From NCBI RefSeq assembly GCF_003334315.1, contig NZ_QOWR01000049.1: a DNA stretch of 36,673 nt. One strand, 5' to 3'. The position numbers and the translations under genes were made by a program. The stretch's first letter is position 1, and the number at the start of each line of letters is the position of its first letter. Under the pieces are notes generated by a model that was not told the DNA's origin, made no database searches, and saw nothing but the letters and a program-made list of their open reading frames with translations. This document shows positions 2,853-6,455 of this stretch, piece by piece. Origin of the DNA: Escherichia coli. GTDB taxonomy: Bacteria > Pseudomonadota > Gammaproteobacteria > Enterobacterales > Enterobacteriaceae.

Positions 2853-4187
2853 ATGAGTTCTGCCAAGAAGATCGGGCTATTTGCCTGTACCGGTGTTGTT
2901 GCCGGTAATATGATGGGGAGCGGTATTGCATTATTACCTGCGAACCTAGCAAGTATCGGTGGTATTGCTATCTGGGGTTGGATTATCTCTATTATTGGTG
3001 CAATGTCGCTGGCGTATGTATATGCCCGACTGGCAACAAAAAACCCGCAACAAGGTGGCCCAATTGCTTATGCCGGAGAAATTTCCCCTGCATTTGGTTT
3101 TCAGACAGGTGTTCTTTATTACCATGCTAACTGGATTGGTAACCTGGCGATTGGTATTACCGCTGTATCTTATCTTTCCACCTTCTTCCCAGTATTAAAT
3201 GATCCTGTTCCGGCGGGTATCGCCTGTATTGCTATCGTCTGGGTATTTACCTTTGTAAATATGCTCGGCGGTACTTGGGTAAGCCGTTTAACCACTATTG
3301 GTCTGGTGCTGGTTCTTATTCCTGTGGTGATGACTGCTATTGTTGGCTGGCATTGGTTTGATGCGGCAACTTATGCAGCTAACTGGAATACTGCGGATAC
3401 CACTGATGGTCATGCGATCATTAAAAGTATTCTGCTCTGCCTGTGGGCCTTCGTGGGTGTTGAATCCGCAGCTGTAAGTACTGGTATGGTTAAAAACCCG
3501 AAACGTACCGTTCCGCTGGCAACCATGCTGGGTACTGGTTTAGCAGGTATTGTTTACATCGCTGCGACTCAGGTGCTTTCCGGTATGTATCCGTCTTCTG
3601 TAATGGCGGCTTCCGGTGCTCCGTTTGCAATCAGTGCTTCAACTATCCTCGGTAACTGGGCTGCGCCGCTGGTTTCTGCATTCACCGCCTTTGCGTGCCT
3701 GACTTCTCTGGGCTCCTGGATGATGTTGGTAGGCCAGGCAGGTGTACGTGCCGCTAACGACGGTAACTTCCCGAAAGTTTATGGTGAAGTCGACAGCAAC
3801 GGTATTCCGAAAAAAGGTCTGCTGCTGGCTGCAGTGAAAATGACTGCCCTGATGATCCTTATCACTCTGATGAACTCTGCCGGTGGTAAAGCATCTGACC
3901 TGTTCGGTGAACTGACCGGTATCGCAGTACTGCTGACTATGCTGCCGTATTTCTACTCTTGCGTTGACCTGATTCGTTTTGAAGGCGTTAACATCCGCAA
4001 CTTTGTCAGCCTGATCTGCTCTGTACTGGGTTGCGTGTTCTGCTTCATCGCGCTGATGGGCGCAAGCTCCTTCGAGCTGGCAGGTACCTTCATCGTCAGC
4101 CTGATTATCCTGATGTTCTACGCTCGCAAAATGCACGAGCGCCAGAGCCACTCAATGGATAACCACACCGCGTCTAACGCACATTAA
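2853..4187 (+). CDS. cadB: CadB lysine:cadaverine antiporter (APC superfamily)
   Basis: 444 aa polytopic membrane protein recognised as CadB; paralogous to AdiC at 25853-27190. Confidence 0.95.
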   Translation: MSSAKKIGLFACTGVVAGNMMGSGIALLPANLASIGGIAIWGWIISIIGAMSLAYVYARLATKNPQQGGPIAYAGEISPAFGFQTGVLYYHANWIGNLAIGITAVSYLSTFFPVLNDPVPAGIACIAIVWVFTFVNMLGGTWVSRLTTIGLVLVLIPVVMTAIVGWHWFDAATYAANWNTADTTDGHAIIKSILLCLWAFVGVESAAVSTGMVKNPKRTVPLATMLGTGLAGIVYIAATQVLSGMYPSSVMAASGAPFAISASTILGNWAAPLVSAFTAFACLTSLGSWMMLVGQAGVRAANDGNFPKVYGEVDSNGIPKKGLLLAAVKMTALMILITLMNSAGGKASDLFGELTGIAVLLTMLPYFYSCVDLIRFEGVNIRNFVSLICSVLGCVFCFIALMGASSFELAGTFIVSLIILMFYARKMHERQSHSMDNHTASNAH

Positions 4188-4204
4188 TTAAAAGTATTTT
4201 CCGA

Positions 4205-4250
4205 GGCTCCTCCTTTCATTTTGTCCCATGTGTTGGGAGGGGCCTTTTTT
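4205..4250 (+). terminator. Intercistronic hairpin with U-tract between cadB and cadA (possible partial terminator / processing site)
   Basis: ggctcctcc ... ggaggggcc (9 bp stem with one G-U pair) followed by TTTTTT, immediately upstream of the cadA SD/ATG. Confidence 0.4.
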
Positions 4251-4266
4251 ACCTGGAGATATGACT

Positions 4267-6414
4267 ATGAACGTTATTGCAATATTGAATCACATGGGGG
4301 TTTATTTTAAAGAAGAACCCATCCGTGAACTTCATCGCGCGCTTGAACGTCTGAACTTCCAGATTGTTTACCCGAACGACCGTGACGACTTATTAAAACT
4401 GATCGAAAACAATGCGCGTCTGTGCGGCGTTATTTTTGACTGGGATAAATATAATCTCGAGCTGTGCGAAGAAATTAGCAAAATGAACGAGAACCTGCCG
4501 TTGTACGCGTTCGCTAATACGTATTCCACTCTCGATGTAAGCCTGAATGACCTGCGTTTACAGATTAGCTTCTTTGAATATGCGCTGGGTGCTGCTGAAG
4601 ATATTGCTAATAAGATCAAGCAGACCACTGACGAATATATCAACACTATTCTGCCTCCGCTGACTAAAGCACTGTTTAAATATGTTCGTGAAGGTAAATA
4701 TACTTTCTGTACTCCTGGTCACATGGGCGGTACTGCATTCCAGAAAAGCCCGGTAGGTAGCCTGTTCTATGATTTCTTTGGTCCGAATACCATGAAATCT
4801 GATATTTCCATTTCAGTATCTGAACTGGGTTCTCTGCTGGATCACAGTGGTCCACACAAAGAAGCAGAACAGTATATCGCTCGCGTCTTTAACGCAGACC
4901 GCAGCTACATGGTGACCAACGGTACTTCCACTGCGAACAAAATTGTTGGTATGTACTCTGCTCCAGCAGGCAGCACCATTCTGATTGACCGTAACTGCCA
5001 CAAATCGCTGACCCACCTGATGATGATGAGCGATGTTACGCCAATCTATTTCCGCCCGACCCGTAACGCTTACGGTATTCTTGGTGGTATCCCACAGAGT
5101 GAATTCCAGCACGCTACCATTGCTAAGCGCGTGAAAGAAACACCAAACGCAACCTGGCCGGTACATGCTGTAATTACCAACTCTACCTATGATGGTCTGC
5201 TGTACAACACCGACTTCATCAAGAAAACACTGGATGTGAAATCCATCCACTTTGACTCCGCGTGGGTGCCTTACACCAACTTCTCACCGATTTACGAAGG
5301 TAAATGCGGTATGAGCGGTGGCCGTGTAGAAGGGAAAGTGATTTACGAAACCCAGTCCACTCACAAACTGCTGGCGGCGTTCTCTCAGGCTTCCATGATC
5401 CACGTTAAAGGTGACGTAAACGAAGAAACCTTTAACGAAGCCTACATGATGCACACCACCACTTCTCCGCACTACGGTATCGTGGCGTCCACTGAAACCG
5501 CTGCGGCGATGATGAAAGGCAATGCAGGTAAGCGTCTGATCAACGGTTCCATTGAACGTGCGATCAAATTCCGTAAAGAGATCAAACGTCTGAGAACGGA
5601 ATCTGATGGCTGGTTCTTTGATGTTTGGCAGCCGGATCATATCGATACGACTGAATGCTGGCCGCTGCGTTCTGACAGCACCTGGCACGGCTTCAAAAAC
5701 ATCGATAACGAGCACATGTATCTTGACCCGATCAAAGTCACCCTGCTGACTCCGGGGATGGAAAAAGACGGCACCATGAGCGACTTTGGTATTCCGGCCA
5801 GCATCGTGGCGAAATACCTCGACGAACATGGCATCGTTGTTGAGAAAACCGGTCCGTATAACCTGCTGTTCCTGTTCAGCATCGGTATCGATAAGACCAA
5901 AGCACTGAGCCTGCTGCGTGCTCTGACTGACTTCAAACGTGCGTTCGACCTGAACCTGCGTGTGAAAAACATGCTGCCGTCTCTGTATCGTGAAGATCCT
6001 GAATTCTATGAAAACATGCGTATTCAGGAACTGGCTCAAAATATCCACAAACTGATTGTTCACCACAATCTGCCGGATCTGATGTATCGCGCATTTGAAG
6101 TGCTGCCGACGATGGTAATGACTCCGTATGCTGCGTTCCAGAAAGAGCTGCACGGTATGACCGAAGAAGTTTACCTCGACGAAATGGTAGGTCGTATTAA
6201 CGCCAATATGATCCTTCCGTATCCGCCGGGAGTTCCTCTGGTAATGCCGGGTGAAATGATCACCGAAGAAAGCCGTCCGGTTCTGGAGTTCCTGCAGATG
6301 CTGTGTGAAATCGGCGCTCACTATCCGGGCTTTGAAACCGATATTCACGGTGCATACCGTCAGGCTGATGGCCGCTATACCGTTAAGGTATTGAAAGAAG
6401 AAAGCAAAAAATAA
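4267..6414 (+). CDS. cadA: CadA inducible lysine decarboxylase (PLP-dependent, fold type I)
   Basis: 715 aa from MNVIAILNHMGVYF...; the ORF-track start at 4228 is an upstream in-frame extension; internal ATG at 4267 has GGAG spaced upstream; ends ...VKVLKEESKK. Confidence 0.95.
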   Translation: MNVIAILNHMGVYFKEEPIRELHRALERLNFQIVYPNDRDDLLKLIENNARLCGVIFDWDKYNLELCEEISKMNENLPLYAFANTYSTLDVSLNDLRLQISFFEYALGAAEDIANKIKQTTDEYINTILPPLTKALFKYVREGKYTFCTPGHMGGTAFQKSPVGSLFYDFFGPNTMKSDISISVSELGSLLDHSGPHKEAEQYIARVFNADRSYMVTNGTSTANKIVGMYSAPAGSTILIDRNCHKSLTHLMMMSDVTPIYFRPTRNAYGILGGIPQSEFQHATIAKRVKETPNATWPVHAVITNSTYDGLLYNTDFIKKTLDVKSIHFDSAWVPYTNFSPIYEGKCGMSGGRVEGKVIYETQSTHKLLAAFSQASMIHVKGDVNEETFNEAYMMHTTTSPHYGIVASTETAAAMMKGNAGKRLINGSIERAIKFRKEIKRLRTESDGWFFDVWQPDHIDTTECWPLRSDSTWHGFKNIDNEHMYLDPIKVTLLTPGMEKDGTMSDFGIPASIVAKYLDEHGIVVEKTGPYNLLFLFSIGIDKTKALSLLRALTDFKRAFDLNLRVKNMLPSLYREDPEFYENMRIQELAQNIHKLIVHHNLPDLMYRAFEVLPTMVMTPYAAFQKELHGMTEEVYLDEMVGRINANMILPYPPGVPLVMPGEMITEESRPVLEFLQMLCEIGAHYPGFETDIHGAYRQADGRYTVKVLKEESKK

Positions 6415-6427
6415 TTAGCTCGTACAA

Positions 6428-6455
6428 GGGAAGTGGCTTGCCACTTCCCTTTTTT
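6428..6455 (+). terminator. cadBA intrinsic terminator
   Basis: gggaagtgg-cttg-ccacttccc followed by TTTTTT, 14 nt after the cadA stop. Confidence 0.8.

Follow-up and report, generated by a model that had tools for sequence, protein, structure and literature searches.

A conserved, covarying stem-loop in the cadB-cadA spacer of Escherichia coli and its possible role as a boundary between cistrons

We analysed a stretch of Escherichia coli DNA of 36,673 nucleotides (contig NZ_QOWR01000049.1 of assembly GCF_003334315.1; hereafter the window) that contains the spacer between cadB and cadA. Between 3900 and 4600 the sequence matches E. coli K-12 MG1655 at 100% identity, and it is annotated there as cadB and cadA. 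In NC_000913.3 both genes lie on the minus strand, cadA at 4356470-4358617 and cadB at 4358697-4360031, and a window position p was converted to genome position 4358617 + (4267 - p). The cadBA genes form a classic operon of the acid-stress response that is also widely used to produce cadaverine, and their regulation has been studied almost wholly at the promoter (CadC, LysP, H-NS). The hairpin described here is an uncharacterised element of a known kind within this well-studied operon. The parts of the locus are as follows.

2853-4187, + strand: cadB, lysine:cadaverine antiporter, the upstream cistron (ORF list, K-12 annotation); its stop codon is TAA, 4185-4187
4188-4266, + strand: cadB-cadA spacer of 79 nt, the area flagged in the original prediction (sequence, RefSeq)
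4203-4214, + strand: 5' arm of the hairpin, pyrimidine-rich, with the core 4205-4213 = GGCUCCUCC (folding, covariation)
4215-4234, + strand: large apical region, 22 nt when the stem is taken as 9 bp (folding, alignment)
4235-4246, + strand: 3' arm of the hairpin, G-rich, with the core 4236-4244 = GGAGGGGCC (alignment, pair counts)
4245-4250, + strand: T6 run (U-tract), restricted to E. coli and its closest relatives (sequence)
4252-4281, + strand: best predicted pairing site of AzuR (AzuCR) (duplex calculation)
4255-4259, + strand: cadA Shine-Dalgarno sequence (SD) GGAGA, within a conserved YCNGGAGA motif (alignment)
4267-6414, + strand: cadA, lysine decarboxylase, the downstream cistron, with its ATG at 4267 (ORF list, K-12 annotation) and a RefSeq length of 2148 nt
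6426-6451, + strand: canonical intrinsic terminator hairpin 3' of cadA, for comparison (consensus scan, folding); an 11-bp stem with a 4-nt loop followed by a T-run, hairpin -17.6 kcal/mol

Within the spacer, GGCTCCTCC (4205-4213) base-pairs with GGAGGGGCC (4236-4244) to form a 9-bp stem with a single G-U pair, U4208-G4241. The stem encloses a 22-nt loop (4214-4235) and is followed directly by TTTTTT at 4245-4250, which is exactly the arrangement between the cadB stop and the cadA SD that the original prediction had described. Folding with ViennaRNA lengthened the stem to 12 bp (4203-4214/4235-4246) and placed a further 3-bp helix, CAU/AUG, in the loop. This hairpin has a free energy of -23.8 kcal/mol, compared to -12.5 +/- 2.5 kcal/mol in 200 dinucleotide shuffles, none of which was as good (z = -4.5). 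When the pairs that involve the U-run are removed, the core has -20.3 kcal/mol and is stronger than the terminator hairpin after cadA. The antisense strand folds much less well (-15.5 kcal/mol, z = -1.8), so the structure is specific to the sense RNA. Since the hairpin begins 16 nt 3' of the cadB stop codon, it lies beyond the reach of a terminating ribosome. We also considered an N-terminal extension of cadA that would start from an in-frame ATG in the hairpin loop (4228-4230, giving a 728-aa ORF). This ATG is not kept in other genera and is probably incidental.

To place the hairpin among its orthologues, we scanned one genome per species and obtained 80 cadB loci, in each of which the cadB stop and the cadA start were located and the spacer was folded. 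Most of the 80 spacers were 76-96 nt long. A stable hairpin was found in nearly all of those of at least 70 nt, across Enterobacterales, Vibrio and Aeromonas, and some cadBA operons whose spacer measures just 25-49 nt have none. In nearly all species, 19-24 nt separate the 3' end of the hairpin from the cadA ATG and 7-12 nt separate it from the SD. Fourteen representative hairpins, drawn among others from Klebsiella, Salmonella, Serratia, Yersinia, Edwardsiella, Hafnia, Vibrio, Aeromonas and Plesiomonas, had z-scores of -1.6 to -5.3. Thirteen of these fell between -2.3 and -5.3, and the weakest (-1.6) came from one Citrobacter freundii locus. The stem reads GCUCCUUCC/GGGAGGGGC in Enterobacteriaceae, GCCCCUUGC/GCAAGGGGC in Serratia and Yersinia, GCCUCUCUC/GAGAGAGGC in Edwardsiella and Hafnia, GGCGCUC/GAGCGCC in Vibrio and GCGCUCUUC/GGAGAGCGC in Aeromonas. 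Stem and loop sequences are thus wholly different in Serratia, Edwardsiella and Vibrio, and the structure is kept. An intercistronic hairpin appears to be a recurrent feature of cadBA-type operons.

Covariation was assessed with a covariance model built from 35 Enterobacteriaceae sequences; its 59 matches were re-aligned and 55 distinct sequences were scored. RNAalifold on the raw MAFFT alignment returned the upper helix alone, because the 5' arms were shifted and the outer stem was missed, and re-alignment with the covariance model recovered it. In the resulting alignment, which is itself fitted to the model, 87% of the cells of the 12-pair outer stem were paired and 10 of the 12 pairs showed changes on both sides. 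At most 1 of 500 column shuffles attained any of the observed measures, and controls with slid partners scored far lower. U-G pairs are frequent, and as these would be A-C mismatches on the opposite strand, the structure belongs to the sense RNA. Orthologue conservation and covariation together confirmed that the hairpin is beyond chance.

The outer stem of Enterobacteriaceae carries an upper helix, GUCAC/GUGAC, which covaries from U-A to C-G and stacks across a 5' bulge of 5-7 nt, and two registers of a GGG triplet are equally supported. The apical region of E. coli retains only the 3-bp CAU/AUG helix in place of this upper helix, and it is this loss that gives E. coli its 22-nt loop. In Enterobacteriaceae, the 3' arm GGGAGGGGC hardly varies and the loop motif CCUGUCA is conserved. 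Such conservation exceeds a purely structural need and hints at sequence-specific recognition. Among 5205 complete E. coli genomes, 4847 (93%) share an identical 79-nt spacer, T6 included. Of two variants that were sampled, C4210T replaces a C-G pair by U-G and G4242A disrupts a pair.

The tail that follows the stem behaves differently from the stem itself. It reads UUUUUUAC in E. coli (longer, UUUUUUACC), UUUCUUUA in E. albertii (longer, UUUCUUUACC), UUUCUACA in Klebsiella (longer, in K. pneumoniae, UUUCUACAUC), CACUUUAC in Salmonella (longer, CACUUUACC), UCGCAUUA in Serratia (longer, UCGCAUUACC) and CUCAUUCG in Vibrio (longer, CUCAUUCGCC). The corresponding tails are UCCCCAUACC in Buttiauxella, UCUCCAUAUC in Raoultella and CGCAUUUUGCC in Edwardsiella. 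In this comparison, Salmonella, Buttiauxella, Raoultella, Serratia, Edwardsiella and Vibrio retain the hairpin and have no U-run after it. Since T6 belongs to the spacer that most E. coli share and the tails of other lineages vary, the U6 is, on this comparative ground, a derived, Escherichia-level trait that was added to an older hairpin.

Published transcript levels bear on the function of the structure. In the RNA-seq data of Schumacher et al. 2023 (PMC10746267), the RPKM values of three replicates were 2827/1973/2165 for cadA and 1412/1795/1200 for cadB at pH 4.4, 492/698/414 and 290/355/289 at pH 5.8, and 5.1/2.6/2.3 and 7.5/1.6/1.6 at pH 7.6. Mean values for cadA and cadB were therefore 2322 vs 1469, 534 vs 311 and 3.3 vs 3.6, which gives cadA/cadB ratios of 1.58 (pH 4.4), 1.72 (pH 5.8) and 0.93 (pH 7.6, uninduced). 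The columns were matched to conditions by way of translation efficiency, which equals Ribo/RNA, and the fold changes agree with the tables of that paper. Ribosome footprints on cadA exceeded those on cadB 4.5-fold at pH 4.4 and 2.5-fold at pH 5.8, and the translation efficiency of cadA was ~0.9, above that of cadB (PMC10746267). An excess of cadA RNA on induction, together with equality when the operon is off, argues against both an efficient terminator and a constitutive internal promoter. Instead, the pattern suggests that the two segments differ after transcription. The same ratio could also be explained by a general instability of membrane-protein mRNA or by RNA-seq bias, with the hairpin uninvolved.

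Data from other species follow the same direction. In Edwardsiella tarda, cadBA is co-transcribed by RT-PCR, RT-qPCR gave cadA > junction > cadB, and a cadC mutant showed a more than 2000-fold decrease in each of cadA and cadB (PMC8438976). The authors of that study describe similar results for V. parahaemolyticus (PMC8438976). In our folding of the E. tarda spacer, the hairpin has no adjacent U-run. The curated Term-seq data of Adams et al. 2021 (PMC7815308) contain no 3' end at genome 4358500-4358799. They likewise contain none in the ranges searched around the canonical cadA terminator, and no entries that name cadA, dtpC or lysU. Since the operon was silent in those media and the cadA terminator is missing too, the missing 3' ends say nothing on the spacer. 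The same study places a Rho-dependent termination region inside cadB, at genome 4359249 (~window 3635), under non-inducing conditions (PMC7815308, supplementary file 2).

The original prediction had proposed a partial intra-operon terminator that would set the CadB:CadA transcript ratio. It named equal coverage of the two genes under induction, with no 3' ends near 4250, as refuting; cadA in fact stands at 1.6-1.7 times cadB, and a terminator that sets the ratio would give the reverse. A bearing of the hairpin on the ratio remains probable, and it is termination as the means that is disfavoured by the unconserved U-run, the 22-nt loop and the higher cadA RNA. The E. coli sequence does have the stem and U-tract of an intrinsic terminator (9-12 bp, a core of -20.3 kcal/mol, U6 at 4245-4250). 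It departs from one in three features, namely loop size, U-tract conservation and a downstream drop in RNA. The loop is 22 nt with an inner helix of just 3 bp, where 3-8 nt is typical, and a consensus terminator scan with loops of 3-8 nt flagged the terminator after cadA and did not flag the spacer hairpin. The hairpin is probably not a ratio-setting terminator.

Our preferred explanation, which we hold tentatively, is that the conserved intercistronic stem-loop works after transcription as a boundary of stability or processing, to the advantage of the cadA segment. The element would form constitutively in the cadBA mRNA, ~20 nt ahead of the cadA start codon, as a stem-loop with a G+C-rich outer stem of ~9-12 bp (5' arm rich in pyrimidines, 3' arm rich in G) and an upper part that is irregular. 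Most likely, it would act as a boundary between the cistrons and shield the cadA segment from decay that begins in the poorly translated, membrane-protein-coding cadB segment. The shielding could take the form of an obstacle to 5'-end-dependent RNase E scanning or, after cleavage of the mRNA upstream, of a protective 5' hairpin; the mechanism of stabilisation and the nuclease are what we infer here. The pyrimidine-rich linker and the SD would be left free for ribosomes, transcription would mostly read through the hairpin, and the expected outcome would be more RNA and protein from cadA than from cadB, from one promoter. The U6 of E. coli, as a recent Escherichia feature, would give the hairpin its terminator look and may add leaky termination, and would not be part of the conserved function. 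A constitutive hairpin that is held at a fixed distance from the ribosome binding site (RBS), conserved in shape and not in tail, and followed by the more abundant segment fits a boundary element. It counts against this explanation that a hairpin at a 3' end is expected to protect the upstream cadB and not cadA. The original prediction had offered a processing site as its alternative, and a role as a processing or stability boundary is probable.

Known systems resemble this proposal in part. Rhodobacter puf operon hairpins, the malE-malF REP and papB-papA processing are examples of intercistronic stabilisers or processing sites. The cadBA hairpin shares with intercistronic mRNA-stabilising hairpins a stable stem-loop in the spacer, no need for a U-run, structure kept over sequence and unequal cistron levels. 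As in these systems, we found a covarying spacer stem-loop between co-transcribed genes and unequal abundance of the flanking segments, the latter on promoter induction only. The classic intercistronic stabilisers differ in that they mostly protect the upstream segment from 3' exonucleases, whereas in cadBA the downstream segment is the more abundant. The hairpin in the ompA 5' UTR is a 5' stem-loop that stabilises its mRNA or obstructs RNase E scanning. Like stem-loops of this type, the cadBA hairpin sits a short, fixed distance upstream of an RBS, and the coding region downstream would be expected to be protected. Unlike them, it is internal to a polycistronic mRNA and would have to act after upstream cleavage or as a roadblock. 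A further example of intercistronic stabilisation is given by the stem-loops of the cip-cel operon (PMC10311766).

An unlikely alternative is that in E. coli the hairpin and its U6 act as a leaky intrinsic terminator, an attenuator after cadB, whose loss of transcripts is masked by a more stable cadA segment. Thermodynamically the hairpin is adequate, with a G+C-rich stem whose core surpasses the hairpin that ends the operon. The geometry is also right, as six U follow the stem directly and the U-run ends 7-8 nt past the stem. Of the E. coli genomes, 93% carry the T6 allele, and with its start 16 nt past the stop codon the hairpin should not be blocked by the terminating ribosome. However, a loop of 22 nt exceeds the usual 3-8 nt and would be expected to delay nucleation of the hairpin, most orthologues that keep the hairpin have no U-run, and induced cadA RNA is 1.6-1.7 times cadB RNA. 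The Term-seq data show no 3' end either (PMC7815308), though the operon is silent in that dataset. Placement ahead of the gene that is needed in the greater amount would moreover be counter-intuitive. Compared to intrinsic terminators and intra-operon attenuators, of which the rplL-rpoB attenuator is an example, the likeness is a G+C-rich hairpin with an immediate U-run, between co-transcribed genes and just out of range of a ribosome that stands on the upstream stop codon. The difference again lies in the loop of 22 nt, the orthologues that mostly have no U-run and the higher downstream RNA. The mccA-mccB terminator of the microcin C operon (PMC4231749) differs in addition, as in cadBA the gene needed in excess is downstream.

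It is less probable still that the hairpin is a docking site for a trans-acting factor (Hfq, ProQ, CsrA or another protein or sRNA) that tunes cadA translation or decay. The E. coli hairpin with its U-run resembles the Hfq- or ProQ-binding module of sRNA 3' ends, and the near-invariant GGGAGGGGC arm and the CCUGUCA motif of Enterobacteriaceae would suit recognition by such a factor. The sRNA AzuR represses cadA through pairing near the RBS, and this repression depends on ProQ and/or Hfq (PMC8915982). In our calculation, the best AzuR duplex (sRNA nt 84-114; -28 kcal/mol) spans 4252-4281: it starts right behind the U-run, includes the SD and the start codon and extends over the first 15 nt of cadA. 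The stem itself was rejected as an AzuR target, as windows over it score only -14 to -19 and the best site is adjacent to the stem and excludes it. The AzuCR-regulated cadA RBS (PMC8915982) and the hairpin thus share a spacer and a gene, with a pairing site that abuts hairpin and U-run. They differ in that the predicted pairing excludes the stem and in that conservation of the hairpin extends much further than that of AzuCR, whose gene is described as not broadly conserved (PMC8915982). Docking is further opposed by the complete change of stem and loop sequence in Serratia, Edwardsiella and Vibrio, where the structure persists. A search of the accessible literature found no binding data for the hairpin site.

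A broader proposal would admit either a stable cadA segment or recognition by a factor, and we regard it as possible, if doubtful. In this proposal, an undescribed cis RNA element, widely conserved in Enterobacterales, Vibrionaceae and Aeromonas, would set the CadA:CadB stoichiometry post-transcriptionally, through a separately stable cadA segment or an RNA-binding factor recruited by way of the invariant GGGAGGGGC arm and the CCUGUCA loop motif. In E. coli the newly gained U6 would have turned this element into an Hfq/ProQ-type module beside the pairing site of AzuR, an sRNA that is equally young.

Very improbable, by comparison, is a hairpin that holds the pyrimidine-rich 5' flank against the SD of cadA, with translational repression as the result, or with coupling if a terminating cadB ribosome opens the structure. 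The E. coli ensemble does pair GGAG with UUUCC (4198-4202) at a probability of 0.93, and the median P(unpaired) of the SD is 0.26 across 65 spacers. However, when the 5' flank is shuffled, the SD is sequestered to the same or a greater degree. Real flanks stood at a median percentile of 0.70 (n = 63), and just 8% of species fell under the 20th percentile. Pairing of the SD is therefore due to the pyrimidine-rich composition, and an anti-SD clamp or translational coupling was rejected. The SD partner also shifts position between genera and, where spacers reach 90-150 nt, lies a long way from the cadB stop, and a cadA translation efficiency of ~0.9, higher than that of cadB (PMC10746267), fits repression poorly.

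A feature of the DNA, either an inverted-repeat operator or the second promoter before cadA on which the E. tarda authors speculated (PMC8438976), is scarcely credible and was rejected, since our scan found no sigma-70-like site near the spacer on the + strand, basal levels of cadA and cadB are equal at ~3 RPKM when uninduced, and frequent G-U pairs and a much weaker antisense fold point to RNA. A REP or other dispersed repeat was likewise rejected, with exactly one site per genome in 5205 E. coli genomes. Searches with Rfam 15 gave no + strand match to E = 10 that overlaps the spacer or hairpin, and the few weak matches in 3800-4700 are due to chance. Gathering-level matches were absent from six orthologous loci and, in a search of the whole window, from the hairpin site. 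In the accessible literature, we found no description of a cadB-cadA hairpin, terminator or ProQ site.

Should the boundary explanation hold, a conserved intergenic RNA structure would explain how more RNA and protein of the decarboxylase than of the antiporter arises from one promoter. This excess of cadA over cadB has been seen by several groups and ascribed to a hypothetical second promoter. The element would then also be a simple handle to tune the CadA:CadB ratio. For annotation, the locus calls for caution, as the hairpin has a terminator look in the best-studied species and cross-species comparison shows the U-run to be incidental to the conserved function.

Several further structures were observed at cadBA-type spacers. 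Second-copy cadBA-like operons of Edwardsiella and Pluralibacter (L058 2821-2893, L059 2854-2935 and L061 2821-2892) carry unrelated, very G+C-rich spacer hairpins that lack a U-run. Longer spacers of 138-150 nt from Edwardsiella and Hafnia (L043, L047, L051, L057 and L080) have an additional upstream hairpin, GUAAUC...GAUUAC, beside the conserved one. The same five spacers have a long closing helix between the 5' flank and the SD-to-ATG segment.

Elsewhere in the window, positions 30672-30837 on the minus strand gave a gathering-level Rfam match to the enterobacterial sRNA STnc630 (178 bits). Tandem naRNA4 matches lie at 36503-36579 and 36603-36673 on the plus strand, the second truncated by the window end; naRNA4 is a nucleoid-associated ncRNA and a REP-type element. 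Between 22360 and 27190 on the plus strand, ORFs of 756, 253 and 445 aa match adiA, adiY and adiC in size and were assigned by size and map position only. These three are genes of arginine-dependent acid resistance. An sRNA that comes out of the adiA 3' UTR, AdiZ, has lately been described in Salmonella (bioRxiv 10.1101/2025.06.06.658255).
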